NCBI GenBank assembly: GCA_963792585.1
Contig: CAWBWI010000001.1
Coordinates: 1,408,001-1,472,000 of the forward strand
Origin: Candidatus Eiseniibacteriota bacterium
Lineage (GTDB): Bacteria; Eisenbacteria; RBG-16-71-46; CAIMUX01; VGJL01
DNA length: 64,000 bases
Direction of reading: 5' to 3'
Below, in pieces: positions 4,927 to 56,261 of the stretch. The translations under genes were made by a program, and so were the position numbers. Every line of letters starts with the position of its first letter. Positions within the stretch are counted from its first letter, which is position 1. The notes beneath the pieces are model-generated. The model saw only the letters and a program-made list of their open reading frames with translations, searched no databases and was not told where the DNA came from.

Positions 4927-4957
4927 TTCCTCTGCCTCTCGGCCGGATCTTCCTGCT

Positions 4958-29458: not shown

Positions 29459-30460
29459 CTACCGGAACAGAGACTTGATGACGCCCCAAGAGTTGTTCTG
29501 CGTCGGCACCGGCCTGCAGTACCAGTAGATGTCCGCCGAGTCGGCAGCGGCGGTGCAACGGTGTCCGGCACCGGCCCAGGAGGGATTCGTGAACTCGTTG
29601 TTCGAGCCGGCAGCACTATAGCGATCGTAGCAATAGCTCTCGGTCGCGTTCGAACAGTAGCGCGTGTTCTCATCCTGGAACAGCGCGTAGCAACAGGCCC
29701 CACACACGATCCCGGCACACGTCGTGTTGTCGCCCGCATAGGTTCCCTGATAGACCCCGTTAGGGCTCTCACAGGTGGCGGAGTCCAGGTTCTCGACACA
29801 AGTCCCCCATGACGTACAGCACGCGCCGCGAGCCGGAGGAATCGGGCAGGTGTTCGAGCCGGCCACACCCCATCGGACCGTTCCGAATCGGTCGACCACG
29901 TCCTCTATGGCCTCGCCGCCGCCAACCCCACCATCATCCACGAATCTCGCATCGCCGAGGGTGGGGTAGGCACCTGTCCCGAAGGTCGAGTTGCCGTCTA
30001 CCCCGATGACTGCGAACCAGTAGAACGGCCAGAAGTGCTCCGTCACGGGAGGCGAAAAGGACACGAGACTCCCGCGGGCCGCGTCTGGAAATCCATTTTC
30101 AGGCAACTCCTGCGAGAAGTTGGCCCCGCAGTGATCGGAATCCACTACATAACCCTGTCCCAGTGGGAGATTCGTATCGATCCCGAACTGGATCGCCGTT
30201 ACGGCGGGCTCGGCGCTCGCGTCAAACGCCGCTATGAACCAGATCACCGCTTCTTGCGCCTCGAACTCCTTGTTTGATTGCGTGACCAGCCCTGCACAAT
30301 CCGCCGGAATGGTGCTAACGCAATAATCCGCACCGAGTGTGTAAATGATGGCGTTGTCCGTGTGAACGAGCAGGGCGCCATTGTCGTTCTTGCCCGCCGA
30401 CGCTGGAGCACTGCAGATCACCGAGACTGCAAGCGCCCCGAGCAACATCCTCTTTACCAT
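29459..30460 (-). CDS. Secreted protein with GACC Cys-rich repeats and C-terminal SWGVIKSLFR tail
   Basis: AGGAGG RBS; signal peptide; NGALLVHTD N-domain shared with 30744; two GACC units. Confidence 0.85.
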   Translation of the reverse strand: MVKRMLLGALAVSVICSAPASAGKNDNGALLVHTDNAIIYTLGADYCVSTIPADCAGLVTQSNKEFEAQEAVIWFIAAFDASAEPAVTAIQFGIDTNLPLGQGYVVDSDHCGANFSQELPENGFPDAARGSLVSFSPPVTEHFWPFYWFAVIGVDGNSTFGTGAYPTLGDARFVDDGGVGGGEAIEDVVDRFGTVRWGVAGSNTCPIPPARGACCTSWGTCVENLDSATCESPNGVYQGTYAGDNTTCAGIVCGACCYALFQDENTRYCSNATESYCYDRYSAAGSNNEFTNPSWAGAGHRCTAAADSADIYWYCRPVPTQNNSWGVIKSLFR

Positions 30461-30680
30461 GGAGATCCTCCTTCTTCCGGCAACCCACTGGCAGCGGCGA
30501 GAAAAGCCATTTCTGGACGATTTCCGCGCACAACCGCAGTGTCCGACTCGGCTACCCCTCGCTGCCGCGCCGGTTTCATACTCCTCGGCGGCAGTATCCG
30601 TCACCCGGGCGGACCCGTGCAACGGAAAAGTCGGCACTCCGCACTGCGTTCTTGATCGTCAAGTGGCCGGCCGGAGAACG

Positions 30681-30712
30681 AGAGAGCCCGCCCCTTGCGG
30701 GGCGGGCTCTCT
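30681..30712 (-). terminator. Intrinsic terminator-like hairpin
   Basis: Perfect 14-bp inverted repeat AGAGAGCCCGCCCC / GGGGCGGGCTCTCT with a GCAA loop on the minus strand, downstream of the 30744 gene. Confidence 0.75.
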
Positions 30713-30743
30713 GTCAGGATCCACCGAAAGTCTGGTTTAGAGA

Positions 30744-31892
30744 CTAGCGGTAGTTGGCCTTGATCTGACCCCACGTAGCGTTCCGCGTAGGAACGATCGG
30801 GCAGGGGTTCGTAGGCTCACACGTCGAGTTGTCACCCTGGTACTGACCGTTCTGGCCGATGCACTCCGTCTCCGTCATGACCTGGCAGTGGCCCTGGTCA
30901 TCGAGGCAGCAGGCACCAGTCGCGGTCGGCGGCGGGCAGACGACCGTCTCGCACGTGGTGCCGGCACCCTGGGGGGCGCCGCCCTGCGCGGTGCAGTCGG
31001 CTGTCAGGATGAACTCGCAGTGGCCGTCCTGGAAGCAGCACGCCTCAGGAACAGGCGGGACGAAGCACAGGTTCGGGTCGCAGTCGCTCCCCGGGCCCTG
31101 CGCGGTACCACCGGCAAGCGCGCACTCCGTCGGGAGCACGAACGTGCAGGCGCCGCCCTCGAAGCAGCATGCCTCAGGCTGCTCGCACGGATTCGGATCG
31201 CAGACCGTGCCGTCGCCAAGGTACTGCCCCTGGCACGCACTCCGCGGGACCAACTGGCAGCTTCCATCCGGATAGCAGCAGGCACCCACAAGGGGTACCC
31301 CACCCGGGAAGTCGTTGTCACCCGTCCCGTCCCACCGGAGCGTACCGAAGTGGGTACAGAGGTCCTCGATGCCGGGGCTCGAGTCGTCAACGAACTTCGC
31401 CTCGTTGGTGCTCGGATAGGACCGAGTTCCGAAGTAAGCCGTTTCATCATCACGGGCCACAGCGAACCAGTAGATTGCATTGATGTGTTGGTTAATCGGG
31501 CCCGGGTAGGCAAGCACGGCGCCAAACCCGGTCTCCGGCCAACCGGTGTCATAAATCTCGAGGGGTCCATCACACGCCGCATAATCGGTGACGTATCCCA
31601 CGGGCAGGTTGTGTCGGATTCCAAACTGCACTGCGGTGACGCTTGGGCTCGCCTCTGGCAAGAAATACCAGAGTACCCAGATCATCTGCTCGCGGGCGAT
31701 TCCCTCGGTACCATTGGCATTGAAGCCAGTGCTATCCGTAGGCATCGCCGTTGCGCAGTAGTCCGCACCCAACGGCGTGTAGATCACGGCATCGTCGGTG
31801 TGAACGAGCAGGGCGCCATTCGCGTTGCGTCCCGCCGTCGCCGGGCTACAGATCAGGGCCAGAATGCCCAGCGCCAGTAGAAGTTTCTTCAT
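30744..31892 (-). CDS. Secreted protein with four (G/E)ACC Cys-rich repeats and C-terminal TWGQIKANYR tail
   Basis: GGAGG RBS; signal peptide MKKLLLALGILALICSPATA; repeats ACC..dG.C......C...GG..QG....C....C. Confidence 0.9.
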   Translation of the reverse strand: MKKLLLALGILALICSPATAGRNANGALLVHTDDAVIYTPLGADYCATAMPTDSTGFNANGTEGIAREQMIWVLWYFLPEASPSVTAVQFGIRHNLPVGYVTDYAACDGPLEIYDTGWPETGFGAVLAYPGPINQHINAIYWFAVARDDETAYFGTRSYPSTNEAKFVDDSSPGIEDLCTHFGTLRWDGTGDNDFPGGVPLVGACCYPDGSCQLVPRSACQGQYLGDGTVCDPNPCEQPEACCFEGGACTFVLPTECALAGGTAQGPGSDCDPNLCFVPPVPEACCFQDGHCEFILTADCTAQGGAPQGAGTTCETVVCPPPTATGACCLDDQGHCQVMTETECIGQNGQYQGDNSTCEPTNPCPIVPTRNATWGQIKANYR

Positions 31893-32067
31893 CGTGATTC
31901 GACCTCCCTAGCTAGCTAGCTGTCATACTCAAGTTTGCGTTGCTCCGACTCGCGCGTCTTGTCGGAGTTTGTACGAGACGTCCGTGCGTCTCCCCATCCA
32001 CCACCCCACCCACGTAAGACCGATCGGGCCCGGCGAAGAATCCCGTTCGATCGAGGGAACCTAGAAG

Positions 32068-32682
32068 TTAAGGGCAGTTCCGGAGGCCGCCGTCCCAGAC
32101 CCCACCGAACGTGGCGAAGTCGCCGACGTTCATCGCATTGTTCCCGTCGTAATCATGGCAACTGGCAGGACCGGTACCGTTCTGCCAAGCCTGACCGAAC
32201 GCCGAGAAGTCCGTTACGGTGATGCTCCTGGACCAACGACCAGCGACACCATTGTTGTCGAACGCCGCGTAATCCGGGCTCTCCACCGAGGTGTACTCCC
32301 GGATCGCAACGCCGTTCGCACGGATGGTGAAAGCACCGGTGCCCTTGTAGCAACCGCCACCAGGAATATTGAACGAAACAATGCCGGATGCATTGGTGTT
32401 GCCTGTCGTCAGGGCACCAGAGCAAAGAACGACCTTGTTGTCCACGATCCCACCGATTTCGATCACGACGACTGCGTTATTGATCGCAAGGCCAGAGGCA
32501 TTGCGAACGGTCACCGTGAAGGCACCGTAGGTCTCAGGAGTCGGGAGATTCGGAATCAACAGCAGCCGCGGACGGATCAGATTGTCCAGGCTTGTCTGGC
32601 AGTTCGAAGGATCGGGAACATCAGCAACCGCCGCCGAAGCCGCGATGCCGAGAAGACACAGAACGAAGATCAAGCGCTTCAT
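32068..32682 (-). CDS. Secreted protein with an Ig-like region and duplicated dockerin/EF-hand-like motif
   Basis: GGAGG RBS; signal peptide; DVPDPSNC, VTVRNASGLAI; SPD...VTDFSAF and HDYDGNNAMNVGDFATF. Confidence 0.8.
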   Translation of the reverse strand: MKRLIFVLCLLGIAASAAVADVPDPSNCQTSLDNLIRPRLLLIPNLPTPETYGAFTVTVRNASGLAINNAVVVIEIGGIVDNKVVLCSGALTTGNTNASGIVSFNIPGGGCYKGTGAFTIRANGVAIREYTSVESPDYAAFDNNGVAGRWSRSITVTDFSAFGQAWQNGTGPASCHDYDGNNAMNVGDFATFGGVWDGGLRNCP

Positions 32683-32852
32683 TCGGTTGACCTCCAAGTC
32701 AAGTTCAGAGTTGGGCAAGCCACTCTGGAAAAGGAGTCCTAAAAGTCTGTTGCAAGACAACGAGTTGCGATAGCCCCTGTGGGCCGGTCCATCCGTCTTT
32801 CTCAGCGCACCTCCTTCCCTAACATGCTCCACATGTTGGCTTGCACGTAGAC

Positions 32853-32881
32853 ATTGTACCAACAGGGGTCGGCAGGGTCAA
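32853..32881 (-). promoter_or_regulatory. Near-consensus sigma-70 promoter for the secreted-protein cluster
   Basis: TTGACC-17 nt-TACAAT with a TG extended -10. Confidence 0.7.
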
Positions 32882-32914
32882 GCCACAATTGCCGAGATTA
32901 TTCCGGGATAGAGG

Positions 32915-32943
32915 TTGACCCAGCGAGCAAGCCGCTGGGTCAA
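32915..32943. terminator. Hairpin downstream of tRNA-Val
   Basis: TTGACCCAGCG / CGCTGGGTCAA 11-bp stem with a 7-nt loop. Confidence 0.6.
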
Positions 32944-32950
32944 AATGACT

Positions 32951-33022
32951 TGGGCGAGACAGGGGTTGAACCTGTGGCCTCCTGCTTGTAAGGCAGGCGC
33001 TCCACCGTTGAGCTACTCGCCC
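32951..33022 (-). tRNA. tRNA-Val(TAC), CCA not encoded
   Basis: GGGCGAG acceptor stem, TAGCTCAACGGTGGAGC D arm, CCTGC-CTTACAA-GCAGG anticodon arm, ACAGG-TTCAACC-CCTGT T arm. Confidence 0.96.
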
Positions 33023-33343
33023 CCCGCGTCCGGACCGGCCGACCGGGAGCCTGGGGCTGCATCCGCCTTGCGGGCTCGCCGCCAAGATTCCCCACGGGAT
33101 CAGCCCTAAGTACCCTCCCACAATCAAGATCGGGGCAAACACCTTGTCGCCGACGGCCAGGAGGACGAACCCGAGAGCGACTGCGGCCCCCCCGGCTGCC
33201 AGGATCAGGAAGTTCCTTCTCCCCCATGGAATGTGAGCTTCCTCCCCGGCGCTGGGGCGCAGTTTCCTGGGGGATTCACCGGCCCCCGGGACCCGGCGGA
33301 TCCCCCGGCCGGTGCTGGAACCCTTCGACCTCGACGCGATCAT
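33013..33343 (-). CDS. Small two-TM membrane protein (DUF3098-like)
   Basis: PWGRRNFLILAAG...LGFVLL...APILIVGGYLGLIPWGIL; the 3' end is inferred across a probable indel. Confidence 0.65.
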
Positions 33344-34263
33344 TGTCCACCCCCTTGGGGCGCCTTCCCCGCGGCGGCCCGGCATGGATTCTCTGGCTCG
33401 CACCGGGATCCCGCCCCCCTGAAGATACCCTTCTGGATAAGGCAGTCCTTCTCCCGTAGCCTCTCGCAGACCGCATCCTCGAAGCAACATGCGCCCAGCG
33501 GGGCGTCCGGCCGGCACAGCTCCCATGAGCAGGGGGTACCTTCCCCGAACCAGACCGCGTTCTCGCCGTAGTAACCGGCCTCCTTTTCGGTCAACATCGC
33601 GCAGATGGTGTCCCGGACGCAGGCGGCCCCGATCTGCGAGCCGGGCCAGTCCATGACGGGCACGCGCCCTGGCACCCCAAAGCCAAGAACGCCCAGGTCC
33701 GCAATTGGTGACTCTACCGGAAACCGCGCCGTCGCGAAGCGCGAGGCGAACTGGGGATTCGGGTGGGGAATCACTTCGACCGTTCCCGGCGACGAGGCGA
33801 TGATGGCGAACCAGCCGAGCTCGACCACGCGCGAGGAGTCGATGTGCCCGGACATGGCGATCGCCATCCCTTCGCCGCTCGACGGCCAATCGGAGGTTCC
33901 GGCCTGCAGGACGTCATCTGCAAGCGCCCCAACGGAGGATCTCGATGCCATCGGAGTAGCGGATCGCCGAAGGTGACGGCCCCCAGCTCGGGGTTCGCGC
34001 TGTCGGGCCATGCCGCCATCAGGTAGGCGATTTGCGGCTTGGCCGAAGTGCCTCCGGAAACCATCGCTTCCGCCGGCGAAGGGTCGCAGAACGGCCACAG
34101 TACTTGGCGCCCTTCGCGTACTCGACATCGGGCGCCAGGGTGAGATAGAGAACGCCCCCGCGGTCGTCCGCGGGCCTGCGCGCGTCCGCACCCCCCGTCG
34201 TCGAGGCAAGGACAGACCATCAGCCGCGAACGCGAACCGCAGCAATCCCCCAACGCGACTCAT
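33340..34263 (-). CDS. Third, diverged paralog of the GACC-repeat secreted proteins (multiple indels)
   Basis: Across frames: GGVLYLTLAPDVEY..YC, AAWPDSANPELGAVTFG, LGWFAI, GVLGFG, GAAC and GACCFEDAVC...CEPENPC. Confidence 0.65.
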   Translation of the reverse strand: MSRVGGLLRFAFAADGLSLPRRRGVRTRAGPRTTAGAFSISPWRPMSSTRRAPSTVAVLRPFAGGSDGFRRHFGQAANRLPDGGMARQREPRAGGRHLRRSATPMASRSSVGALADDVLQAGTSDWPSSGEGMAIAMSGHIDSSRVVELGWFAIIASSPGTVEVIPHPNPQFASRFATARFPVESPIADLGVLGFGVPGRVPVMDWPGSQIGAACVRDTICAMLTEKEAGYYGENAVWFGEGTPCSWELCRPDAPLGACCFEDAVCERLREKDCLIQKGIFRGAGSRCEPENPCRAAAGKAPQGGGQ

Positions 34264-35281
34264 CGTCCATCCTCCGTCGAAGCACGCACCGCGCGCCGCG
34301 CCCGATTGTGTTCCGCAAGCGTCCTCGAGAAACGGTGTCCGCCGTCTCCGCCGGCCACGAAGAACATCTCCGTCCCCACTGTGTCAGGCCAGAGCACGGC
34401 CCGCAAGGCGTCCATCCCCGGATTGCCGATCGGTCCGGGGGAAGGCCCCGCAATCGGTAGGTGTTGTACGGCGAGATCGACCTCGAGATCCTGGTAGAGG
34501 AGGGGACCCGAGAACCGGGCCAGAGCATAGCGGACGGTCGGGTCCGCCTCCAGCTTCCAGCCGAGACGCAGGCGCCTCCAGAAGACCCCGGCGATCCGCG
34601 GCATCTCCGCGACCCGCGCCGCCTCCGCCTGGACGATCGACGCGAAGGTGACGGCCTGATCGGGTCCGATCCCCAGCCGCGCCGCGCGCTCGCACAGATC
34701 GGGCGTCAGCGCGGGCCTTCGCCTCGCGAAGCATTCTTCCGAGGGCCGTCGCGTCGGCTCCGCTCCTTCGGAAAGACGTAGGTGGCCGGGAAGAGATACC
34801 CCTCCAGGCGCGGGCGCGGCAGCACCGGCCGCGCGGATCCACGCTCGAGTCGCCCGCCGCGGGCGCGGAGCTCCATCGAGATCGATTTCGAGGGAGTCCG
34901 CCAGGATCTTCAGGATCTGCTCCTCTCGCCAGCCTTCGGGGATCGTCACCCGGGTCGTCTCGACCCGACCCGAGACCAGCTGCGCCATGACTTCCCGCGG
35001 CGAGAACTGCCGCGGGTGAGGCGATACCGGCCGTGCTGCACCTTCCGATCCATCCCGGCGCGACCGGCCCACCATGCCAAGCAGCCGGGGCTGACGGACC
35101 CAACCGGAATCGGCCAACGCCTCGGCAACGGACCGCAGGGACGCTCCGGGTGCCACGCGCACACGGCCCGGTCCCTGCTGCGAACGCCTCGGTGGGCGTG
35201 TCGAGTTCCGCGATAAGACCCACCGCCAAGAGCGCGGCGAAGAAGAGGAGGCCGCCGGCCGCGAGGGATCCAGCGCTTCAT
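34260..35281 (-). CDS. mltG: Endolytic transglycosylase MltG (frameshifted)
   Basis: RVTIPEGW, ASIVQAEA, IAGVFWRRL, LEADPTVRY, PGPIGNPG and HRFSRTLAEHNRA motifs. Confidence 0.9.
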
Positions 35282-35707
35282 CGGGGAAGGCTCTCAATGT
35301 AGGACTGCAGGAGAATCGTCGCCGCGACCTCGTCCACGGCTCCCTTGCGACGCCGCACCGCAGCCGGTGCGTGGCGGAGGTTTTCCTCGGCTTCCCAGCT
35401 CGTCAGCCGTTCGTCCCAGAGGATTACCTCGATGCCACGCGCACGCAGGCGCGCGGCCAGATCCTCGATATCGGGGACGATCTCTCCAGGTGAGCCGTCG
35501 AGATGACGCGGCAACCCCAGGACGATGGCGGCGGCCGCGTGCTCGGCCACCCGCTCGGCCAACCGCGCGGCGAGATCGTCGAGTCCTCGAGCCTGGAGGG
35601 TCGCAAGCGGATATGCGAGTCGCCCTTCCGGATCGCAGAGGGCCAATCCCCGTGCGGCGCCGACCATAGTCGACGCCGAGATAACAGCGGCTTCGCTCCG
35701 GATTCAA
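35278..35707 (-). CDS. ruvX: Holliday junction resolvase-like RuvX/YqgF (indel near 35650)
   Basis: LGVDYG, ALCDPEG, VLGLP, WDERLTS and VDEVAATILLQSY motifs. Confidence 0.9.
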
Positions 35708-36162
35708 ACGGAATGACCGCCGGGAGGTTTGCCGCCGTTCGAGCGCTTGGTCTTCAGCAGGCGGACGGTTGTTCCTGTGGTAGGGCGGATCTCGAAATCG
35801 ACCTTATCCATCATCTCGCGCATGATGAAGATGCCACGGCCGCTGCAGTTCATCAACGCCTCCGGAGTCGTCGGGTTGCGCGCGAGGACGGCGTTCAGGT
35901 CGAAACCGGGGCCGGAGTCATGCACCGTGATCATCAGCGCATCCGGGGTCAGATCGAATTGGAACTCGACGATCTTGGACGCATCTCTCTTGTGACCGTG
36001 CTGGATCGCATTGGTGCCCGCCTCGATCACCGAGATCGAAACCGCGTCGGCCACGTCTTCGTCGAACCCCATCTCGTCGTTGATCCCCTGCATGAGTCGA
36101 TCGAGGACCGACAGGAGCTCGAGGCGACTGGGGATCGAGAGGGTGATCACCTGCGTCTGCAT
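35704..36162 (-). CDS. Anti-sigma factor Ser/Thr kinase (RsbW-like)
   Basis: EAGTNAIQHG, DSGPGFD and SGRGIFIMREMMD motifs. Confidence 0.9.
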   Translation of the reverse strand: MQTQVITLSIPSRLELLSVLDRLMQGINDEMGFDEDVADAVSISVIEAGTNAIQHGHKRDASKIVEFQFDLTPDALMITVHDSGPGFDLNAVLARNPTTPEALMNCSGRGIFIMREMMDKVDFEIRPTTGTTVRLLKTKRSNGGKPPGGHSV

Positions 36163-36192
36163 CGGTACCCCATGGAATTCGGCGTCGGGCGG

Positions 36193-36552
36193 CTACCTCG
36201 AGGATGAGGCCGCCAACCCTTCGCGCCCTTCCCGCTCCGAGCCCACCACATCAAAGACCGAGTTCAAGCGGGTGATCGCCAGGATCGAAGCGATCCGCTT
36301 GGTGACCCGGGACAAACGCAGACGACAGCCCTTTTCACGCGCCGCCAGGTGTGCGCTGATGAGAAAACCGAGCCCGGTGGAGTTGACCCATGTCACCTCG
36401 GCCATGTCGAGGGTGATCTGCCGGGAACCCCGCTCGATGGCGGCCAAGAGTGCATTGCGGAATCCCAAGGAGTCTGGACCGCCCATCAACTGGCCGCTCA
36501 GGCTCATCGTGACGGCATCGCCGTCGATCTCCTGGGTGTGCCTCATCGCCAT
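36193..36552 (-). CDS. STAS anti-anti-sigma factor (RsbV-like)
   Basis: LDMAEVTWVNSTGLGFL and ILAITRL motifs. Confidence 0.88.
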   Translation of the reverse strand: MAMRHTQEIDGDAVTMSLSGQLMGGPDSLGFRNALLAAIERGSRQITLDMAEVTWVNSTGLGFLISAHLAAREKGCRLRLSRVTKRIASILAITRLNSVFDVVGSEREGREGLAASSSR

Positions 36553-36555
36553 CCT

Positions 36556-37521
36556 TCAGGTCTCGTCCGACAGCTCGCGCAGTAGGACTTCGATCTCCCC
36601 CGGTACCGGTGCCTCAAACACCCAACCCCGATGGTCCCGAGGGTGGCTGATGCTCAAATGATAGGCATGCAGCGCTTGACGGTTCAAGCGACGAAGCCGG
36701 TCGGTCCAGAGAAGGCGGGCCGCGGGGGCGATTCGCGGAAGGAAGGCGCGTCCACCCCCATAGGTCGGATCGCCAAAGACGGGGAAACCCGCATGGCTCA
36801 GGTGCACGCGGATTTGATGGGTTCGGCCCGACTCGAGACGCACCTCGAGCAGGCTGAGCGGACCGTATCCCCGGAGCACTCGGTAGTTCGTCCGGGCGGC
36901 GCGGCCGCCCTGGGCGACGACGGCCATCTTCTTGCGATCCCTTGGATCCCTTCCCATCGGGGCGTCGATGACCCCCTGCGCGGGGTTCGGCGCGCCCCAG
37001 ACGAGGGCGATGTAGCGGCGGCTCGCCTCGCGCCGGGCGATCTGCCCCTGCAGATCCAGATAGGCCCGGTCATTGCACGCGACAACAAGGAGCCCGCTGG
37101 TTTCACGGTCGAGCCGGTGGACGATTCCCGGGCGCTCCGGCGATCCGGGCCAAATCCGGTTGGGATGCAGATGGAGGAGTCCGTGGACGAGGGTCCCGTC
37201 GCGACGTCCCGCGCCCGGATGCACGGTCAGCCCCGCCGGCTTGTCGATGACGATCAGATCATCATCCTCGTGGACGATCCGCATCGCGATCGCCTCCGGC
37301 TTGAGGATCGACGGCACGGGCTCCGGAGGATCCACGCACACCGTCCACCCGGCGCGCAGCGGCAAGCCCGCTTTGATCGAGGCTTGTCCTTCGACCGTGA
37401 TGAGCCCGTCGTCGAGCCACCGTCGCAGGCGACTGCGCGATATGTCCGGAATCCGGGTTACGAGGAAGTGGTCGAGGCGTTGGCCTTCTTCATCCTGGCC
37501 GACGACGTAGGTCTCCGCCAT
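36556..37521 (-). CDS. rluD: RluA/RluD family pseudouridine synthase
   Basis: S4 domain, DKPAGLTVHPG, RPGIVHRLDRETSG and GRTHQIRVH motifs. Confidence 0.93.
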   Translation of the reverse strand: MAETYVVGQDEEGQRLDHFLVTRIPDISRSRLRRWLDDGLITVEGQASIKAGLPLRAGWTVCVDPPEPVPSILKPEAIAMRIVHEDDDLIVIDKPAGLTVHPGAGRRDGTLVHGLLHLHPNRIWPGSPERPGIVHRLDRETSGLLVVACNDRAYLDLQGQIARREASRRYIALVWGAPNPAQGVIDAPMGRDPRDRKKMAVVAQGGRAARTNYRVLRGYGPLSLLEVRLESGRTHQIRVHLSHAGFPVFGDPTYGGGRAFLPRIAPAARLLWTDRLRRLNRQALHAYHLSISHPRDHRGWVFEAPVPGEIEVLLRELSDET

Positions 37522-38006: not shown

Positions 38007-38007
38007 G

Positions 38008-38388: not shown

Positions 38389-38429
38389 ACATTCCTCCAG
38401 CGGCGCGCCGATCCGTCTTCGGGCACTCC

Positions 38430-39266: not shown

Positions 39267-39291
39267 CGGCTCCTCAATGCGGTCGCGCCTC

Positions 39292-43339: not shown

Positions 43340-45586
43340 TCAACGAAGGACGATGACTCGAGTCCTCCCGACGCGGTCGTGTGTCCTCAGGTGTGCGTGG
43401 TACACGCCATTGGCCACCGGTCTTCCGCCGCCGTCACGACCATCCCAATCGATGAACGATCCACCGCGCCGGCCCGCGACCCCTGTTATCCTGCGAATGC
43501 AGCGACCGGCCTCATCGTGAATGCTGAGAGACACGATCTCGTCCAACCCGAGACCTGATTCAAACCGAATTGGGCCTGAGGAGGGATTGGGGCGGGCCGA
43601 CAGGGCGATATCGTTGCCGGCGGGGACAATCTCCGGATCCCCGATCCCCGAGGGCGGCGACGGACAATGCAATGCTGCTACGGATAGGTAGGGTTGGTCC
43701 GCCAGGTAGACGTAGCCACCGGCGATGTCGATTCCCTGGCCACCGCCCATCGTCAACAACTCGCCGACGATCCGCGGGGACTCCGGTTCTCCTACATCGA
43801 CGATGTGAAGGCCGGCTGCCCGGTTGCTCGCGACATAGACGTAGTCTCCGTCGACGGCGAGCCGCATTCCGTAGACTCTTAGTTGGATGAATCCCACAAT
43901 GTGTGCCTGATTCGGCGACGTGACGTCGACATCGAAGAACCCGTTGTTCTTCCCGCTCACGTAAGCGTGATCTCCCTGAACCTTGACGGCGTAGGCTCCG
44001 CCGTCGATCGGAACGGTACGGATGACAGCCGGTGCCTCCGGAGTGGAGACATCAACGATGACCAGCCCCGTCGTTTCGTCCGTTACATAGACATAGGAAC
44101 CGGATGCGTCGACGCGCCGGGCGCTCTGTCCCGGTGAGGTTCGTACCGTCGCTACAACGGTAGGGTGCAGGGGATCGGCGACGTCGATGACGAAGAGGTC
44201 CGACCCCGCGACATACGCGTACGCCCCTTCCACGTCCAAATCCCAGGCGGGACCATTCACGCTTACGGTCGCCAAGAGCTCCGGATCCTCTGGATTCGCA
44301 ATGCGCGTAATCGAGACGCCGCCACCCCAGTTGGCGGTATAGGCGAAATCGCCGCGTACCTCGACCCCCTCGATGACGCCCGGAGGGTCGACGGTCGACA
44401 GCCCGCGCGGGTTCAGAGGATCGGAGATGTCGTAGATTCTGAGACCTTGGTTCATGCAGGCGATGTAGGCGATCGTGTCCTGTACTGCTACATCCACTGC
44501 GTCAATGGAATCGACAATTGCAAGGGGCACCACCATGCTCGGTTCGTTGGCGAGGTCGAAACACTCGAGGCTGTATTGATCGGCGACGTAGGCCATGGAC
44601 CCCTGAATCGCCAGATTCCAGCAGGTCCACGGGGTAGCATGGTCGCCAATGATCACGGGAGATGATGGGTCGGAGACATCCGCAATCGTAATGCCATGCG
44701 CACCGTCGGCAATGCAGGCGAACCTCCCATAGAGTGCGACGCCATTGGGGCTGCCAGGGGTGGCTATCGATCCAATCGATTCGAGCGGCATCCCTGGGCG
44801 GCTCCAGACGACTTGCAGGCCTCCTGGCCCGTCGCCAACGTAAACGACGTCACCGTCGACGGCCACTCCTTGAGCATAACCTGGTAGACTGAGCACTCCG
44901 TCTGCACCCGGATCGAATGGGTCCGTCAAGTCGACGCGCATGAGGCCCCTATCCTCGATCGCGAGATACGCTGAATTGCCGGAGACGGCGATATCCCAGA
45001 CCCAGCTCGGTGTCGTCAGCGCTGCGACGACTTCCGGAGCGACCGGGAGGGACACGTCGACAACCTCCAACCTCGAGGAGGCGAAGTAGGGTAAGCGCGC
45101 CTCGCCGACGTAGACCGCACTACCGGAGACTGCGACGGAGAATGCGGGGAGACTTGTCTGGAGCCCGGAGATGAGGACAGGGTTGCGCGGGTCCTTGATG
45201 TTGATGATCTGGAGTCCCCCGAACAGATCGGCAACAAAGGCGTGCCCGTCCTCGACCGCCACATCGGTTGCCGAACCCGGGGTATCCGCACGGCCCACGC
45301 GGACAGGGTGCCGAGGGTCCGAGATGTCGATGACATAGAGCCCCGAATCGGAGGCTGCCGCGTACACATAGTCCCCCCCCACCACCACTCCCATGATTCC
45401 TCCGGGATCAGGAATGCTGGCGATCCAATGGAGGTGATCGCTGTAGTCGCGACATTCGCCCTGAGCCGGCGTGGCCCATGTCAGAAACGACACAAGAAGA
45501 GCCGGTCCTAACATCAATGCGAAGTTCGGGCCCGGCTCCAAACGAAGTCCTCTAGATCTGTGGAAAAGGGCTAATTGGTGTGTCAA
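43340..45586 (-). CDS. Secreted LVIVD-repeat protein with FlgD-Ig/T9SS-like C-terminal domain
   Basis: More than 10 repeats of type YAYVA...GL.IvDvSdP..P; CTD ARPNPS...WDGRDGGGRPVANGVY. Confidence 0.88.
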   Translation of the reverse strand: MTHQLALFHRSRGLRLEPGPNFALMLGPALLVSFLTWATPAQGECRDYSDHLHWIASIPDPGGIMGVVVGGDYVYAAASDSGLYVIDISDPRHPVRVGRADTPGSATDVAVEDGHAFVADLFGGLQIINIKDPRNPVLISGLQTSLPAFSVAVSGSAVYVGEARLPYFASSRLEVVDVSLPVAPEVVAALTTPSWVWDIAVSGNSAYLAIEDRGLMRVDLTDPFDPGADGVLSLPGYAQGVAVDGDVVYVGDGPGGLQVVWSRPGMPLESIGSIATPGSPNGVALYGRFACIADGAHGITIADVSDPSSPVIIGDHATPWTCWNLAIQGSMAYVADQYSLECFDLANEPSMVVPLAIVDSIDAVDVAVQDTIAYIACMNQGLRIYDISDPLNPRGLSTVDPPGVIEGVEVRGDFAYTANWGGGVSITRIANPEDPELLATVSVNGPAWDLDVEGAYAYVAGSDLFVIDVADPLHPTVVATVRTSPGQSARRVDASGSYVYVTDETTGLVIVDVSTPEAPAVIRTVPIDGGAYAVKVQGDHAYVSGKNNGFFDVDVTSPNQAHIVGFIQLRVYGMRLAVDGDYVYVASNRAAGLHIVDVGEPESPRIVGELLTMGGGQGIDIAGGYVYLADQPYLSVAALHCPSPPSGIGDPEIVPAGNDIALSARPNPSSGPIRFESGLGLDEIVSLSIHDEAGRCIRRITGVAGRRGGSFIDWDGRDGGGRPVANGVYHAHLRTHDRVGRTRVIVLR

Positions 45587-47055: not shown

Positions 47056-47118
47056 CTGAACATACCTCCGGGAGAATACGAATCGATGTCGGGAGGATCA
47101 CCAGATTTCTCGCCGGTA

Positions 47119-47146
47119 AGTATACGCTCTCGAGCCGCGGGGTCAA
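47119..47146 (-). promoter_or_regulatory. Possible sigma-70 promoter
   Basis: TTGACC-16 nt-TATACT upstream of the 47055 gene. Confidence 0.5.
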
Positions 47147-47181
47147 ACAGCCCCCGCGTCGCCCGGGAGATCGCCCCGGCT

Positions 47182-48729: not shown

Positions 48730-48857
48730 CGTTCCTGCTCCTCGTTCCGGCCGTCAATATCGACTAATCATGATACCAGATCGGCCGATGGGAAGCGACT
48801 CTGGGGAGGGACGCCCCTAGACACTACCGGGGCGGAACCCGGGCAGGGCCAGACCGC

Positions 48858-50660: not shown

Positions 50661-51607
50661 GGAATGGCCCGCGCGATGCGCTCTCGAAGCTCGGATGGGC
50701 CGCCCGCCATCACGATGAACGGATCCTCGGACCGCGTGGCGGCGACGACCAGAGACGTCTCTCTCCCGAGTTCCACCTGGACGCTCTGCAAGACGCGATC
50801 GATCCTACCGTAGAGGCGGGGTGCGCTCGAACGGAGACGGCGCAAGAAGAAGAGGCGCTCGGTCTCTTGCGCTTCAAGGGCGGAAACGCGCGTGGACTCC
50901 TCGGCGGCGATGGCGGATGCGGTCCATGGGAGCAGATCGTCCTCGTAGGCGCTGGCGAGCGCGAGCCTCAGGAACAGACGTTCCGGGCGCCGGTCGCGGC
51001 CGTAGTAGATCGCGGTATTCGCGAAGAGGCGATCGACCGCGTACGCGTGGCGGATCTTCCATAGCGGGTGCCCGGACGTCGCGGGCATCGCCGCGAGGGT
51101 GTGGGTTTGGAGATCCGTGAGGCTCGCGAATTCGAGGACCTCTTCCCAACGCAGGGCCTCGTCCAGACCGGCGATGTGACGGAAGTCGGAGATCGCGGCC
51201 TCGCCCTGCCACGCGGCGAGCATCTCGGGGGACGGGGCGCCGTCGGAGTCCTCCCATTCGGCATCCCCGAGCAACTCGGAGGAGATCGTGAGCACCCTCT
51301 CGCCCGCCGCCGGGCGCCCTTGCCAACCGATGTCGATCACGTGGCCGCGGGCATCGTCTCGGAGATCAACGCGGATCGAGTCGATCCTCGCCGCTGCGGC
51401 TGAATCGATCGGGAGCAGATCCCCGCGCCTCGAAGTCGTGGCCAGCCACGGCAGGAGTCCTTCGTTGATGAGGCGCCGGACGGTCGAGGCGCGCGCACCG
51501 GGAAGCTCGATCCAGACCAGCGTTCCCGCAATCGCCGGCGCCGCCGCCGCGAGGAGCAGGAACAACAGGATCGTGGTCTTCGCCGTCATGGCGATACAAG
51601 ATAGCAC
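50657..51607 (-). CDS. Hypothetical exported protein
   Basis: Signal peptide (ILLFLLLAAAAPAIA); ATGA coupling to the acyl-CoA ligase. Confidence 0.6.
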   Translation of the reverse strand: MLSCIAMTAKTTILLFLLLAAAAPAIAGTLVWIELPGARASTVRRLINEGLLPWLATTSRRGDLLPIDSAAAARIDSIRVDLRDDARGHVIDIGWQGRPAAGERVLTISSELLGDAEWEDSDGAPSPEMLAAWQGEAAISDFRHIAGLDEALRWEEVLEFASLTDLQTHTLAAMPATSGHPLWKIRHAYAVDRLFANTAIYYGRDRRPERLFLRLALASAYEDDLLPWTASAIAAEESTRVSALEAQETERLFFLRRLRSSAPRLYGRIDRVLQSVQVELGRETSLVVAATRSEDPFIVMAGGPSELRERIARAIP

Positions 51608-51643
51608 AGGTTCTGCGGCGTAGCTTGCCCCGGCCGGCGGTCG

Positions 51644-52780
51644 GTGTTAGCGTCCGGCGGCGTGATCCCCGTTCGGAGGAAATCGCCCCCCAGGATCGTC
51701 CACCTGGTCACCGATCTACGGCTCGGGGGCACGCAGCGAATGATCCTCGCGCGCGTGCGGGGGATTTCCGGTTACGAACATCATGTCTGGGCTCCCGCGC
51801 GGATCGCTTCGGGCCACGCTACGGATATCGTAGAGGAGCTGGAGGACGCGGGAGCTTCGGTCATGGCCGGCCGCAGCGGCCCCTTCGGCGCCGCGACGTG
51901 GCTCGCCAAGGCGCATCTGCGGGTGTCGCGGCTCGCCCCCGCGATCGTCGAATCGACCCTCTACCACACACACCTCGTGGCGCCGCATCTGGCCTCCGCG
52001 GGCAGAGCGCGCTGGATCCTGTCGAAGGAGAGCACGGATGATTGGATGAGCGCGGCCCAGGCACGAAGGGAGGCGGGCATCGCGACCCGCGCCGATGCGG
52101 TCGTCGCCGTCTCCCGCGCCGCCGCGGCTGCTCTCGAACGCGCCGGGACACCTGCATCGAACGTGCGGGTGATCCCCAACGGGATACCGCCGGGGCCTCC
52201 CTCCTGGAGACCTCTCGATGAAGGGGGCGCGGAGCCGATGATCCTTTTCGTGGGGCGTCTGGATCCCGCGAAGGGACTGCCCGAACTGATCGGGGCCGCG
52301 CGCCTGCTGCTGGAACGAGGATGCCGGATCCGACTGCAGATCCAAGGAGACGGGCGCGAGGAAGGACTGGTCCGCGATGCGATGGCCATTGCGCCGCTGG
52401 CGGGCCGGGCGCGGCTCATCCCCCACGCCGAGGCGGTGAGATGCGCGCCGCGGCCCGAGAGTGCCCCCTGCATCTTCGTGCTCCCTTCCCGCTATGAGGG
52501 ATTCGGGATCGTCTTGCTCGAGGCGATGCGTCTCGGGCTGCCGGTTGTCGCCACGCGCACGGGTGGCATTCCGGAGGTCGTGCGCGACGGCATCGAAGGC
52601 CTGCTCGTCCCGCCGCGCGATCCCGCCGCACTCGCGGACGCGATCACGCACCTGATCGAGGATCCTGCGCTGCGCGGCAGGCTCGCGGCGGCCGGGCGCG
52701 CCCGCGCAGACGCGTTCCGCGAGGATGCGATGTGCGCGGCGTGGGGGGCCATCTACGCGGACCTGGCCGGCGTCCCGTGA
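51644..52780 (+). CDS. GT4 glycosyltransferase
   Basis: GGTQR, VIPNG, FVGRLDPAKG and PSRYEGFGIVLLEAM motifs. Confidence 0.9.
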   Translation: MLASGGVIPVRRKSPPRIVHLVTDLRLGGTQRMILARVRGISGYEHHVWAPARIASGHATDIVEELEDAGASVMAGRSGPFGAATWLAKAHLRVSRLAPAIVESTLYHTHLVAPHLASAGRARWILSKESTDDWMSAAQARREAGIATRADAVVAVSRAAAAALERAGTPASNVRVIPNGIPPGPPSWRPLDEGGAEPMILFVGRLDPAKGLPELIGAARLLLERGCRIRLQIQGDGREEGLVRDAMAIAPLAGRARLIPHAEAVRCAPRPESAPCIFVLPSRYEGFGIVLLEAMRLGLPVVATRTGGIPEVVRDGIEGLLVPPRDPAALADAITHLIEDPALRGRLAAAGRARADAFREDAMCAAWGAIYADLAGVP

Positions 52781-53904
52781 AGCACGTTCAGATCATCACA
52801 CGCCTCATCGTCGGCGGCGCCCAGCGGATTGCCATCGAAACCGCCGCCGATTGCCGGGCCCGCGGAGACGACGTCCAGATCTGGTGCGGTCCTCAGACGG
52901 GACCGGAGGGAAGTCTCGCGGACGAGACCCGTGCGCGCGGAATCCCCCTCCTGATAGTCCCCAATCTCGTGAAAGAGGTCTCCCCCCTTCGAGACGCGGC
53001 TGCCCTGCGTTGGCTCGCCGCGCGGTTGCGGCGGGAGCGGCCCGATGTCGTCCACACCCATAGCAGCAAGGCGGGAATCCTCGGACGCCGCGCGGCGCGC
53101 TCCGCGCGGATTCCGCGTATCGCCCATACCATCCACGGATGGGGCTTCTCGGAGCGCACACCACTCCCCGCGCGTCTTGCCTTCATTCTCGTCGAGCGCG
53201 CTGCGGCCGGCTGGGCGGACCGATTGGTCGCCGTCTCCGAGGCGGTGCGCGCGGAGGGGCTTCGCAATGGGATCGGTCGCGCGGATTCATATGAGGTGGT
53301 CCGCCCGGGGATCGACACCGTGGCCTACGAGGATCTCGCTGCGATCCAAGCGCGCGGGCGGGCGCTTCGTGACGCGCTCGGAATCCCATCCGATGCGGTC
53401 CTGGCCGGGACGGTCACCCGTCTCTCCCCGCAGAAGAACCCCATGCGGATCGTGAAGGCTGCACGCGATCACAAGGATCTTCACTGGCTGATCGTCGGGG
53501 ACGGACCGATGCGCGATGCGATCGAGAGGGAGATCTCCCGTAACGGGCTCTGCGATCGAGTGCGCCTGGCGGGACTGCGAGAGGACGTCGCCTCGTGCCT
53601 TGCCGCGCTCGACATCTTCGTCCTCACCTCACTGTGGGAGGGGCTCCCCCTGACCCTGCTGGAAGCGAAGATGGCGGGGGTCCCAATCGTCGCCGCGCGG
53701 GTGGGAGGAGTCGACGAGATCCTCCCGTCCCCTCCTGCGGGCTGGGGATTCCCGGTTGGGGACGCGACGGCGTTCGACCGGGCGCTGGCGTCCTGCGTCG
53801 CAGCGCTTCCCGCCGCCCGCGAGGCCGCGCTGCGCGACCGCGCGACGTCCATGGAGGAGCACTCCCTGCGAAGGATGCTGGATCGTATCCACGCGCTTTA
53901 CTAG
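52777..53904 (+). CDS. GT4 glycosyltransferase
   Basis: ITRLIVGGAQ, HTHSSKAG, HTIHG and SLWEGLPLTLLEA motifs. Confidence 0.9.
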   Translation: MKHVQIITRLIVGGAQRIAIETAADCRARGDDVQIWCGPQTGPEGSLADETRARGIPLLIVPNLVKEVSPLRDAAALRWLAARLRRERPDVVHTHSSKAGILGRRAARSARIPRIAHTIHGWGFSERTPLPARLAFILVERAAAGWADRLVAVSEAVRAEGLRNGIGRADSYEVVRPGIDTVAYEDLAAIQARGRALRDALGIPSDAVLAGTVTRLSPQKNPMRIVKAARDHKDLHWLIVGDGPMRDAIEREISRNGLCDRVRLAGLREDVASCLAALDIFVLTSLWEGLPLTLLEAKMAGVPIVAARVGGVDEILPSPPAGWGFPVGDATAFDRALASCVAALPAAREAALRDRATSMEEHSLRRMLDRIHALY

Positions 53905-53962
53905 ACTCCCCTCATTGTTGAGGTTCGATGAGACCGGCACGCCCGGTAGGAGGTTTGCGTCC

Positions 53963-55240
53963 ATGCGTGGCACATTCGATCGTCAATCCGCCTTCGGAAA
54001 CGCGCTGCGGCAGTTCGACCGCGCCGCGAAGATCCTGAAGCTGTCCAACAACCAGATCGCGGTCATCAAGGAACCGCGCCGTGTGACCGAGGTGCGTCTG
54101 CCGGTCCAGATGGATGACGGGAGCATCGAGGTCTTCACCGGTTACCGGGTGCAGCACAACATCGCGCGGGGGCCGGCGAAGGGAGGCGTTCGCTTCCATC
54201 CCGATGTGAACATCGACGAGGTCAAGGCGCTCGCTTTCTGGATGACCTACAAGTGCGCGGTCGTGAATATTCCAATGGGCGGCGGCAAGGGAGGGGTCAT
54301 CGTCGACCCCGATAAGCTCTCCCTGGCCGAGAAGGAGCGTCTTTGCCGGCGCTACTTCGCCGAGATGATCGACCTCTTCGGGGGCAACCGCGACGTCCCC
54401 GCGCCCGATGTGAACACGGGCCCGCAGGTCATGGCCTGGTTCATGGACACCTATTCGATGCACCACCAGGACTATCTGCCGGAGGTCGTGACGGGCAAGC
54501 CGGTCGAGATCGGCGGCAGTCTGGGCCGCGAGACGGCGACGGCCGACGGGGTGACGATCTGCATCCGCGACGCTGCGCGGCATCTCAAGCTGGATCTCGC
54601 GGGCGCGCGCGTGGCCGTCCAGGGCTTCGGCAACGTGGGCAGCTACACCGCGCTGAACCTGCTCCGCGACGGCTGCAAGATCGTGGCCCTTGCCGATGTG
54701 ACCGGCGCCTACGTCAACCCGCGTGGGATCAACGTCGAGAAGTTCGCGGAGTACGCGCGGGCGCACAGGGGGAAGCTCAAGGGGATCGAGAAGGAGATCA
54801 AGGGCGTCCGGCTCCTCAAGGACGCGAAGGACATCCTGGAACTCGACCTCGAGATCCTCGTTCCCGCCGCGCTCGAGAACCAGATCAACGGGGACAACGC
54901 GGGCAGGATTCAGGCGAGGATGATCGCCGAAGGGGCGAACGGGCCTCTGACCACCGAGGCGGACGACATCCTGGACAAGATGAACGTCTTCGTGATCCCC
55001 GACATCCTCTGCAACGCGGGGGGCGTGACCGTCAGCTACCTCGAGTGGGTTCAGAACAGGATGGGGTACTACTGGTCGGAGCGGCGCGTCTACGAGGACC
55101 TCGAGCAGATCATGAAGTCGGCGTTCCGGACGGTGCTCGAGACGAGCATCCAGTACAAGGTCAACATGCGCATCGCCGCCTTCATCGTGGCGATCAAGCG
55201 CGTCACCCAAGCGGCGGAGCTTCGCGGGTTGTACGCATAG
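53963..55240 (+). CDS. gdhA: Glu/Leu/Phe/Val dehydrogenase (glutamate dehydrogenase)
   Basis: GPAKGGVRFHP, GGGKGG, DVPAPD, VQGFGNVG, EGANGP and NAGGVTVSYLEW motifs. Confidence 0.93.
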   Translation: MRGTFDRQSAFGNALRQFDRAAKILKLSNNQIAVIKEPRRVTEVRLPVQMDDGSIEVFTGYRVQHNIARGPAKGGVRFHPDVNIDEVKALAFWMTYKCAVVNIPMGGGKGGVIVDPDKLSLAEKERLCRRYFAEMIDLFGGNRDVPAPDVNTGPQVMAWFMDTYSMHHQDYLPEVVTGKPVEIGGSLGRETATADGVTICIRDAARHLKLDLAGARVAVQGFGNVGSYTALNLLRDGCKIVALADVTGAYVNPRGINVEKFAEYARAHRGKLKGIEKEIKGVRLLKDAKDILELDLEILVPAALENQINGDNAGRIQARMIAEGANGPLTTEADDILDKMNVFVIPDILCNAGGVTVSYLEWVQNRMGYYWSERRVYEDLEQIMKSAFRTVLETSIQYKVNMRIAAFIVAIKRVTQAAELRGLYA

Positions 55241-55296
55241 CGACGGCAGGTTCGCCCGCGTGATCCGGAGCGCCAGTCGCGGGGGCGCACGCAAGA

Positions 55297-55327
55297 AAGC
55301 CCGGAGGCGATGACCGCCTCCGGGCTT
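55297..55327. terminator. Terminator between convergent genes
   Basis: 13-bp stem AAGCCCGGAGGCG / CGCCTCCGGGCTT with a T-rich tail on the minus strand. Confidence 0.75.
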
Positions 55328-55349
55328 CCCACTTGAACCGAAGTTCAGA

Positions 55350-56261
55350 CTAGCGGAACAACGACTTGACGGCGCCCCAGGTCGCGTCCTGAACCGGGGT
55401 CGCACAGGGAATGCCCTCGTGCTTGCGGATGATGTTGTCACCGAAACCGGAAACGTAGACGAACGCGGACTCGTCGGAGGTGATGGCCGTCGTGCTGGAC
55501 CCAGCAGCATTGAAGGTCTGCGACGGGCTGTTGAACGGCGAGTCGTAGTAGCCGAGCTGGTTGGCACCGAAGTCGGCGATGAAGAAAGCGTTCAGGCAGT
55601 TGTCATAGTCGACACCCGCGAAGAAGCCGTACGCGACTTCCTGCGAGATCTGGGTCCAGGTGCCGCCCGCGTTGAGGGTGATCTGGTGGATGTACCCCTC
55701 GAAGTCACTCGCCCAAACGTCGCCGTTGGCGTCGACGGCGACGCCGATGATGGTGTTGATGTGGGCGCCGTTCGTGCATCCATTGCTCGCGCCGTCCAGG
55801 ATCCAGTGGTCGAGAAGCGCGCCGCTGACCCGATCGACCGAGTAGATGATGTCGTCGCTGAGGATCAGGTCACCCTGGTAGTCGGCGATCAACAGGCGAT
55901 TGCCGTCCACACAGGCGTCGTCCGAGAAGCCATCGGTGGTCAACCCGTAGGCCGTGACGTTGAACGTACGGATCACGGGATGTCCCGCACCGACGCTGAT
56001 CAGCGAGATGCTGCCGGTGCTCTCGTTGGCAACCCAGACACCGTTGTCGTTCGGGTCATAGGCGAGGCCGACGATGTTGGCGATCCCCGGGTTCCACGAG
56101 TCGATCTGGGTGCCGAATGAGCGGTCCGGGGCGCTGCCGCCCTGGCCGCCGATTCCGTTCGCCGTGCAGTAATCGACAAAGCTGCTGTACTCCGTGGCGC
56201 CAGCAACGCTGACAACCGAGGCCAGCAGGGACAGAGCGACAATCCAGTAGCACTTCCGCAT
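55350..56261 (-). CDS. Secreted beta-propeller (NHL/YncE-like) protein with C-terminal TWGAVKSLFR tail
   Basis: AGGAGG RBS; signal peptide; blade-like repeats (GLAYD..VWV, GVAVD..VWA, GVDYD, AITSD). Confidence 0.85.
   Translation of the reverse strand: MRKCYWIVALSLLASVVSVAGATEYSSFVDYCTANGIGGQGGSAPDRSFGTQIDSWNPGIANIVGLAYDPNDNGVWVANESTGSISLISVGAGHPVIRTFNVTAYGLTTDGFSDDACVDGNRLLIADYQGDLILSDDIIYSVDRVSGALLDHWILDGASNGCTNGAHINTIIGVAVDANGDVWASDFEGYIHQITLNAGGTWTQISQEVAYGFFAGVDYDNCLNAFFIADFGANQLGYYDSPFNSPSQTFNAAGSSTTAITSDESAFVYVSGFGDNIIRKHEGIPCATPVQDATWGAVKSLFR

Follow-up and report, generated by a model that had tools for sequence, protein, structure and literature searches.

A 16-residue C-terminal WG tail on predicted secreted proteins of Eisenbacteria and other phyla is a candidate type IX secretion signal

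In a 64,000-nucleotide stretch of the genome of a Candidatus Eiseniibacteriota bacterium (phylum Eisenbacteria, here the source phylum; contig CAWBWI010000001.1, positions 1,408,001 to 1,472,000; hereafter the window), predicted secreted proteins encoded at positions 29459, 30744 and 55350 end in a shared tail of about 16 residues built around a Trp-Gly pair, which we call the WG tail. We conclude that the WG tail is an undescribed C-terminal tag present in several phyla, and this conclusion holds even if a link to a type IX secretion system (T9SS) fails. On balance, we consider it probable that the tail is a miniature T9SS signal for the export and processing of small cargo, replacing the 80-residue C-terminal domain (CTD). 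An initial annotation of the window had proposed the tail as a candidate sorting signal, and translation of the three open reading frames (ORFs) agreed with its description of their C-terminal ends, with the Trp nine residues before the stop. The relevant features, with positions numbered within the window, are as follows.

29459..29509 (-): WG tail of the 29459 protein, 16 codons plus stop (translated ORF end)
29459..30460 (-): secreted protein 29459, 333 amino acids from the likely ATG, with a cohesin-like N-terminal domain (by homology to the 30744 protein), Cys-rich repeats and a WG tail
30744..30794 (-): WG tail of the 30744 protein, with a helix predicted at residues 374-381, pLDDT about 72 (ORF end and model)
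30744..31892 (-): secreted protein 30744, 382 amino acids, with a cohesin-fold N-terminal domain, four Cys-rich repeats and a WG tail (structure search, homologs)
33340..34263 (-): tailless paralog of the 30744 protein, frameshifted near 33916 in this assembly (ORF comparison, relatives)
55350..55400 (-): WG tail of the 55350 protein (ORF end)
55350..56261 (-): secreted protein 55350, 303 amino acids, with a weak NHL-repeat match, an unrelated body and a WG tail (Pfam search, ORF end)

The bodies of the three proteins had been called unrelated. This is true of the 55350 protein; the 29459 and 30744 proteins are paralogs (40% identity), so the window contributes two independent tail-bearing bodies, not three. 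The WG tail is kept in 48/54 homologs of the 30744 protein and is missing in every frame from the paralog at 33340, consistent with the claim that it is modular. Orthologs of that paralog are intact and tailless in 7/7 relatives, which rules out loss of its tail by assembly error, and the argument drawn from it therefore stands. The Cys noted upstream of the tail is present in all three window proteins (at -10, -10 and -9) and is no part of the signal genome-wide: a Cys lies at -16 to -5 in only 77 of the 116 tail ORFs described below, where it belongs to Cys-rich repeats, and it is not conserved in tails from Poribacteria or Zixibacteria. We therefore ruled out the Cys as a signal component. 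The Lys of the proposed motif holds for the majority of tails, with Arg instead in 39/116.

We scanned all 71,129 stop-to-stop ORFs of the source genome (5.4 Mb, 84% complete) for the tail. The strict motif lay 10-11 residues from the stop in 76/80 matches. Its Lys form was terminal in 77 ORFs, and a form allowing Lys or Arg was terminal in 116, with the consensus x-[TV]-P-[TVI]-x-x-[TAS]-[TS]-W-G-x-[IVL]-[KR]-x-x-[YF]-R-stop. The Trp was exactly nine residues from the end in 106/116 tails, and a single terminal Arg was likewise found in 106/116. Internal matches of the same expression numbered 28 in 7.86 million positions, corresponding to 1.8 expected terminal matches as compared to the 116 observed; the tail is thus neither limited to the three window proteins nor an internal motif. 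A signal-peptide heuristic, which is crude and permissive, was positive for 94/108 tail ORFs of at least 120 amino acids, 218/291 CTD-bearing ORFs and 1086/2955 other genes, and several of the tail ORFs that it missed are short or frameshifted fragments. Hence, the expectation that a scan of protein ends would return many carriers, nearly all terminal and mostly with signal peptides, was borne out. The assembly looks rich in frameshifts, such that counts in the source genome are lower bounds; aspS (window 4866-6711), sprA (contig C4 of the source genome, C4:15479-21745) and other genes are split over several frames. An internal WG motif at C3:137764 was discarded because it lies in an apparently non-coding frame.

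Tail-bearing bodies formed 37 single-linkage clusters, the largest with 65/116 members, and included LamG, CBM9, NHL and cohesin-fold types. The cargo is small, with a median length of 240 amino acids as compared to 635 for CTD cargo. The tail contains no transmembrane segment: only 3/116 tails exceeded a 17-residue Kyte-Doolittle mean of 1.5, and the median best 17-residue hydropathy was 0.26. AlphaFold2, run with a 50-row alignment, modelled the stretch from Trp to Tyr as a helix with moderate confidence.

We observed the tail in several phyla. A stop-anchored DNA pattern matched 190/201 genomes of the source phylum, with a reversed control almost silent, and a looser pattern matched 22/22 re-tested low-count genomes of that phylum. 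The tail pattern also matched 101/101 Krumholzibacteriota genomes and 61/61 Poribacteria genomes. A scan of a genome collection with the tail pattern returned at least 128 loci, nearly all of which translate to tail-ending ORFs; among the matches listed, the named loci were mostly from Eisenbacteria, Krumholzibacteriota, Latescibacterota and Poribacteria, and one locus with a Sulfurimonas label was a chance match. These scans agree with the mention, in the initial annotation, of similar tails in metagenome-assembled genomes related to the Fibrobacteres-Chlorobi-Bacteroidetes group. The tail of Poribacteria takes a variant form, with [AS]V-x-P-x-G-K-L-x-T-T-W-[GA]-x-[IL]-K, and ends two residues after the Lys. 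Zixibacteria showed background counts of the pattern save for one conserved copy in 23/71 genomes. The carrier is a single-copy secreted protein of ~140 amino acids encoded directly after rex (13 translated), and a profile of this protein found it, with strong E-values, in 10/10 genomes positive for the pattern and in 0/10 negative ones; an ESM Atlas search with it returned unnamed clusters only. At E<=1, no NCBIfam model covered the tail of any of 4 + 31 proteins, such that the suggested comparison with sorting-signal models found no family covering it, and no Pfam model matched the tail in 25 proteins. A literature search of titles and abstracts, with subscription papers and supplements outside its range, yielded no description of the tail.

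We compared the tail with the T9SS CTD of the same genome. A local hidden Markov model (HMM) identified 297 ORFs with a FlgD_ig-type CTD in the source genome and none among the 116 tail ORFs, and a CTD-bearing homolog exists for 56/116 tail ORFs. In five best-hit pairs of tail and CTD homologs, the CTD linker begins where the tail begins, and in one protein among these pairs the WG helix follows a linker of the CTD type. The sole ORF seen with both elements, C3:1272738-1273190 (-), encodes a 150-residue secreted protein that consists of only a CTD/FlgD-like fold and a WG tail; this tail carries a nine-residue extension and lies outside the set of 116. An ordinary CTD protein from the window serves as a comparator.

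43340..45586 (-): LVIVD-repeat protein with an ordinary FlgD_ig-type T9SS CTD (domain search)

A six-residue linker motif, x[AS][DGA][VA]x[DE], learned only from 224 CTD linkers of the source genome, had a mean score of 7.4 on CTD linkers as compared to 5.1 on shuffled linkers. In tails from the source genome, from the genome scan, from Zixibacteria and from family f8, this motif peaks at W-8; in Poribacteria tails the peak is at W-13. PMC4560394 gives X/(GSA)(VLI) as the cleavage consensus of the T9SS sortase PorU, and PMC11969387 gives PT/GI for the short CTDs of Prevotella intermedia. A site of the canonical type, [GSAD][VLI], was present in 30/50 Poribacteria tails (28/50 for the strict form [GSA][VLI]) and in 12/14 Zixibacteria tails. 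Sites in the source genome and in Krumholzibacteriota carry Pro or Thr/Asn instead: the source genome has a canonical site in 8-9/116 tails and P[VLIT] in 78/116, and Krumholzibacteriota have a canonical site in 3/49 tails and [GSA][VLITN] in 29/49. Three tandem lipoproteins of the source genome (C2:291916-293914) carry the WG helix and lack the P[TV] linker motif, an arrangement that fits export without cleavage.

The window also encodes a C25 peptidase, PorU-W, which is a candidate for the processing enzyme.

15386..19618 (-): PorU-W, 1410 amino acids, with Propeptide_C25, Peptidase_C25 and a FlgD_ig-type CTD; candidate processing enzyme (domain search, tree)
20013..21800 (-): SurA/PrsA-like peptidyl-prolyl isomerase, upstream of PorU-W (domain search)

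PorU-W scored 167.6 bits on the PorU model NF033707 (cut-off 420) and 60.8 bits on the PorU2 model NF052324 (cut-off 450). In a tree of 46 sequences it fell in a clade of 11 (support 100/99) that is sister to PorU together with PorU-like genes of Poribacteria, and His933 and Cys973 were invariant in 35 aligned orthologs. PorU-W matched in 179/201 genomes of the source phylum, where 28/29 fetched loci were classed in the clade and one was unscored, and in 101/101 Krumholzibacteriota genomes at E<=4.5e-98. In Krumholzibacteriota, 25/30 PorU-W loci have the end of a WG gene, in the same orientation, no more than 1.5 kb upstream; by contrast, this was true of 0/20 PorU loci. The figure was 22/23 for Krumholzibacteriota PorU-W loci with at least 1 kb of flank; the 30 loci were the best-scoring ones, two of them HMM seeds, and kin among them are not independent. 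In the source phylum, tail genes were present in 18/18 regions upstream of PorU-W, and the order mltG, dockerin-like gene, tail genes was found in 13/18. Across the four lineages compared, the type of site in the tail changes with the presence of PorU-W, which fits PorU-W as a lineage-specific processor. In the source phylum and Krumholzibacteriota, the tail is probably cut by PorU-W, a second copy of the T9SS sortase.

Genomes that carry the tail also carry T9SS components. SprA was matched in 40/40 genomes of four phyla, with 28 matches over the cut-off and 12, all from Poribacteria, below it. The source genome contains a frameshifted SprA, with PF14349 over its cut-off, a PorU at C1:875300 that scores above its cut-off (569 bits), and 16 PorV-family matches. 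All Poribacteria examined (12/12) have a divergent SprA-like gene in frames of ~2000-2300 amino acids, below cut-off; C25 genes of the PorU-like kind number 2-3 in Poribacteria, and PorV-family matches reach 17. These SprA-like and PorU-like matches run contrary to PMC3909097, which reported no structural Por secretion genes in Poribacteria. Two secreted proteins of ~1400 amino acids in the source genome (C1:1083564-1087742 and C1:607623-611921) match one stretch of the SprA model weakly, and directly after the first come CTD genes and a WG gene. At six Zixibacteria loci, a PorV ortholog lies a few kb downstream of PorU in frames of 790-1070 amino acids, apparently fused to a long N-terminal part. 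A PorV clade composed of only tail-positive Zixibacteria and one Poribacteria gene was rejected as a universal reader of the tail because it has no member in the source genome or in Krumholzibacteriota. PorP (PF11751) had 0 matches in the source genome; the control genomes were silent too, so no absence is shown. Two secreted proteins at C6:121506-123741 end in a hydrophobic stretch and a basic cluster that look PEP-CTERM-like by eye, and a tripartite sorting system may coexist in the source genome.

Under the mechanism that we favor, the predicted helix [ST]W[GA]x[ILV][KR]xx[YF]R would be recognized after Sec export by a T9SS shuttle, probably a PorV-family barrel, and SprA would be the route of the tagged cargo across the outer membrane. 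A PorU-type sortase would then cut the linker at a distance of 5-7 residues ahead of the Trp, or of 10-11 in Poribacteria, and the new C-terminus would be attached to a surface glycolipid. In the source phylum and Krumholzibacteriota, with their non-canonical Pro or Thr/Asn site, PorU-W would make the cut. Shuttle recognition, passage through SprA, cleavage and glycolipid attachment are proposed on the model of cargo of types A and B (PMC11205867, PMC12618676). A stronger formulation is that a third class of T9SS signal exists in several uncultured phyla as a bare peptide, comprising a cleavage site and a nine-residue helix, with Eisenbacteria and Krumholzibacteriota having their own sortase that cuts before Pro or Thr and a cohesin-dockerin scaffold, and that this is the shortest such T9SS tag; we regard this fuller version as a serious possibility rather than a probable one.

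Several observations weigh against a T9SS signal read by these components. We found no PorU-W among the placed C25 genes of 6 Poribacteria (two fragments left out), and none among the 30 best-scoring of 71 Zixibacteria hits, the other 41 of which scored lower and were unclassed; PorU-W therefore cannot be the universal reader of the tail and is at most a lineage-specific processor. A WG gene lay within 1.5 kb of PorU-W at 0/28 loci of the source phylum, mostly from the taxonomic order to which the source genome belongs, and PorU-W lies about 10 kb from the WG genes in the window and further from them in close relatives. No PorV paralog was common to all tail-bearing lineages yet missing from tail-less Zixibacteria, in a comparison of 157 domains that took in only part of the listed Zixibacteria matches, with 73 weak ones unlisted. 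Tail-less Zixibacteria have a T9SS too, such that the co-occurrence of tail and T9SS is one-directional. GldM was matched in 0/20 T9SS-bearing genomes; the control was also silent, so no absence is shown, and these phyla may have a divergent energizing motor. The ORF at C3:1272738-1273190 combines a WG tail with a CTD-like fold. Pro, which is atypical at the presumed P1' position, is found there in 85/116 tails, and the linker-motif peak in the source genome is weak (-5.8, against a background of -8.9 with a standard deviation of 5.4) because Pro is penalized. PMC4804311 calls PorU cleavage sequence-independent, and the linker motif is accordingly suggestive only. The covariation of site and enzyme spans four lineages, two of them presumably related. 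Lastly, the T9SS signals described in PMC11969387 and PMC12618676 are folded beta-domains of at least 40 residues, among which a lone helix is unprecedented. The earlier suggestion of an export or anchoring tag linked to the T9SS and the C25 enzyme is supported by the domain swaps, the synteny and the covariation of sites; the part that did not hold generally is the C25 paralog, which was not found in the tested Poribacteria and Zixibacteria.

The strongest alternative, which we nonetheless judge unlikely, is that the tail is an uncleaved docking peptide with a dockerin- or SLH-like role, inserted into a receptor on the surface or in the periplasm, which may be a CTD-bearing carrier, with the cargo held non-covalently or carried piggy-back. 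Such a role would suit the helix TWG-K-I-K-A-L-F, which is invariant in 13 Zixibacteria proteins with identity to the first sequence down to 25%, as well as the Pro at the presumed cleavage position, the cohesin/dockerin-like pair already at the locus (see below), and the mild clustering of tail genes with CTD genes (57/116 within 5 kb, as compared to a random mean of 40 and maximum of 54). It leaves unexplained, however, why the linker motif is in register with CTD cleavage linkers and why the tail is tightly linked to a sortase paralog with an intact active site. Moreover, inspection of short CTD ORFs, many of which look like frameshift fragments, turned up no obvious carrier that is small, conserved and CTD-bearing.

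It is less likely still that the tail directs sorting by some machinery other than the T9SS, such as type II secretion or another envelope pathway. The CTD swaps would then reflect shared cargo only, and this reading gains from the failure to find a T9SS receptor among the PorV-family domains, from a tail fold unlike any CTD and from the divergence of the Poribacterial SprA; it sits poorly with swaps that are in register at the CTD linker, with the near-total exclusivity of tail and CTD, and with synteny with a PorU-sister enzyme. We consider it very unlikely that the tail acts on its own, as an amphipathic helix adhering to membrane or lipopolysaccharide without a dedicated reader. The predicted helix does have Trp, Ile and Tyr on one face, basic flanks and a mean hydrophobic moment of 0.43 at 100 degrees, but it is only 8-9 residues long, its W, G/A and K/R positions are constant in identity and not just in hydrophobic or basic character, its distance from the stop is fixed (106/116), it occurs on lipoproteins that are already anchored, and the linker motif upstream of it is conserved. 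The least credible reading, that the tail is a known signal (tripartite CTERM, short CTD or beta-signal of the beta-barrel assembly machinery, BAM) or an artefact of homology within one family, is largely refuted, since the single cluster holding 65/116 bodies and the partial alternation of the last residues (moment 0.62 at 170 degrees) are outweighed by 37 body clusters with LamG, CBM9, NHL and cohesin-fold members, the lack of a transmembrane segment, the lack of NCBIfam, Pfam or literature counterparts, and a prediction of helix, not strand.

The locus around the 29459 and 30744 genes contains further features that bear on the function of the tagged proteins.

32068..32682 (-): secreted protein 32068, 204 amino acids, with an Ig-like domain and a C-terminal two-helix dockerin-like repeat, without WG tail or CTD (alignment, model)
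32951..33022 (-): tRNA-Val(TAC), inside the locus
34260..36546 (-): genes for mltG/YceG, an RsbW-like kinase and STAS, which form a conserved anchor upstream of the WG locus (domain search, relatives)

The N-terminal domain of the 30744 protein (model pLDDT 91) has a cohesin fold by VIA-align (Z 10.9, rmsd 3.1 A, 129 aligned), with all of the top 18 rows being cohesin or cohesin-type modules, and Foldseek gave E 4e-4. The 32068 gene is conserved just upstream of WG genes. The C-terminal domain of its product has two repeats of an Asp-rich loop and a helix, in the alignment and in the model (pLDDT 94), and the protein gave weak Foldseek rows to the X-dockerin chains 5k39_B and 5m0y_B (E 0.03-0.04). 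A wide fold search of the 32068 protein, which covered the Ig part only, listed no dockerin, and Pfam cohesin and dockerin models matched neither the 30744 nor the 32068 protein. The WG tail was found in 0/67 homologs of the 32068 protein. Among 19 ORFs with a cohesin-like domain in the source genome, 10 have the tail at their end and 6 have a CTD there; two more dockerin-like paralogs of 32068 adjoin another WG-tail gene, at C1:584343-586508. The modelled folds suggest that the 30744 and 32068 proteins may form a cohesin/dockerin-type surface scaffold, in which the tagged cohesin-fold cargo would hold its dockerin-like neighbor on the surface. A gene near the locus that was first taken for an oligosaccharyltransferase is a SpoIIE/RsbU phosphatase. 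In sequencing runs, at most 0.12 of words matched, and in four RNA runs parts of the locus are covered by contigs from relatives, which cannot show expression.

If a 16-residue tag does the job of a CTD, this would change the view of T9SS cargo recognition and could provide a compact tool for surface display. The tail would mark roughly 2-3% of source-genome genes, now annotated as hypothetical, as surface proteins, and would similarly mark dozens of hypothetical proteins per genome in Eisenbacteria, Krumholzibacteriota and Poribacteria, the last being sponge symbionts. PorU-W is a named candidate enzyme, and Zixibacteria with one tagged protein and only PorU represent a minimal natural system.

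We compared the tail and its associated genes with known systems. The 30744 and 32068 proteins, with a cohesin fold and an Ig plus dockerin-like architecture, respectively, resemble cohesin-dockerin pairs with a surface-anchored cohesin, the role played by cohesins in X-dockerin type II/SdbA systems; the anchor here would be the WG tail and not SLH or LPXTG. The BAM beta-signal places an aromatic residue at the end of a barrel's last strand, whereas the tail ends in Arg (or two residues after Lys in Poribacteria), is carried by non-barrel bodies and is predicted to be a helix. Similar to the LPXTG, PEP-CTERM, GlyGly-CTERM and MYXO-CTERM signals, as described in 10.1101/2023.06.07.544157, the tail is short, C-terminal, present in multiple copies on secreted proteins and marked by invariant signature residues; unlike these tripartite signals, it lacks a transmembrane segment and a basic cluster of 2-5 residues (10.1101/2023.06.07.544157). 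No intramembrane protease was seen at the tail loci inspected, and no genome-wide profiling was run. The initial annotation was thus right to set the tail apart from CTERM signals that require a transmembrane segment and, given that it has no CTD match, from T9SS CTDs. PorU-W shares with PorU (NF033707, PDB 6za2) its domain layout, His/Cys dyad and own CTD, and is in a sister clade; it differs from PorU and PorU2 in falling below both cut-offs and in active-site motifs that differ and carry insertions, and the true PorU of the source genome lies elsewhere.

The closest counterpart of the tail is the type A CTD (TIGR04183/PF18962; FlgD_ig PF13860 type here), which is shuttled by PorV and cleaved by PorU. 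Like the type A CTD, the tail is C-terminal on signal-peptide proteins whose bodies are in many cases unrelated, sits at the matching place in homologs, follows a similar linker motif and is found in the same genomes. It differs in being about 16 residues long, predicted to be helical and carried by small cargo; by contrast, the type A CTD is a seven-stranded beta-sandwich of 70-80 residues with motifs B, D and E, and neither TIGR04183, PF18962, PF13860 nor the local CTD HMM matched the tail. PMC11969387 describes short CTDs of P. intermedia whose cleavage consensus, PT/GI, resembles the start of the tail, indicating that T9SS signals can shrink yet be cleaved and glycosylated; these keep 40-51 residues, a three-stranded sheet and motifs B, D and E, unlike the tail. 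The type B CTD (TIGR04131), with its PorP/SprF shuttles, shows that a second class of signal can have a handling protein to itself, often from a linked gene (PMC12618676). It is a beta-domain of about 100 residues (PMC12618676). The gene linked to the WG tail encodes a sortase paralog, and TIGR04131 did not match 35 proteins at E<=1. Overall, the WG tail is most likely an undescribed signal that feeds a known machine: it would work like a T9SS CTD, yet by fold and length it is outside the type A, short and type B CTD classes.

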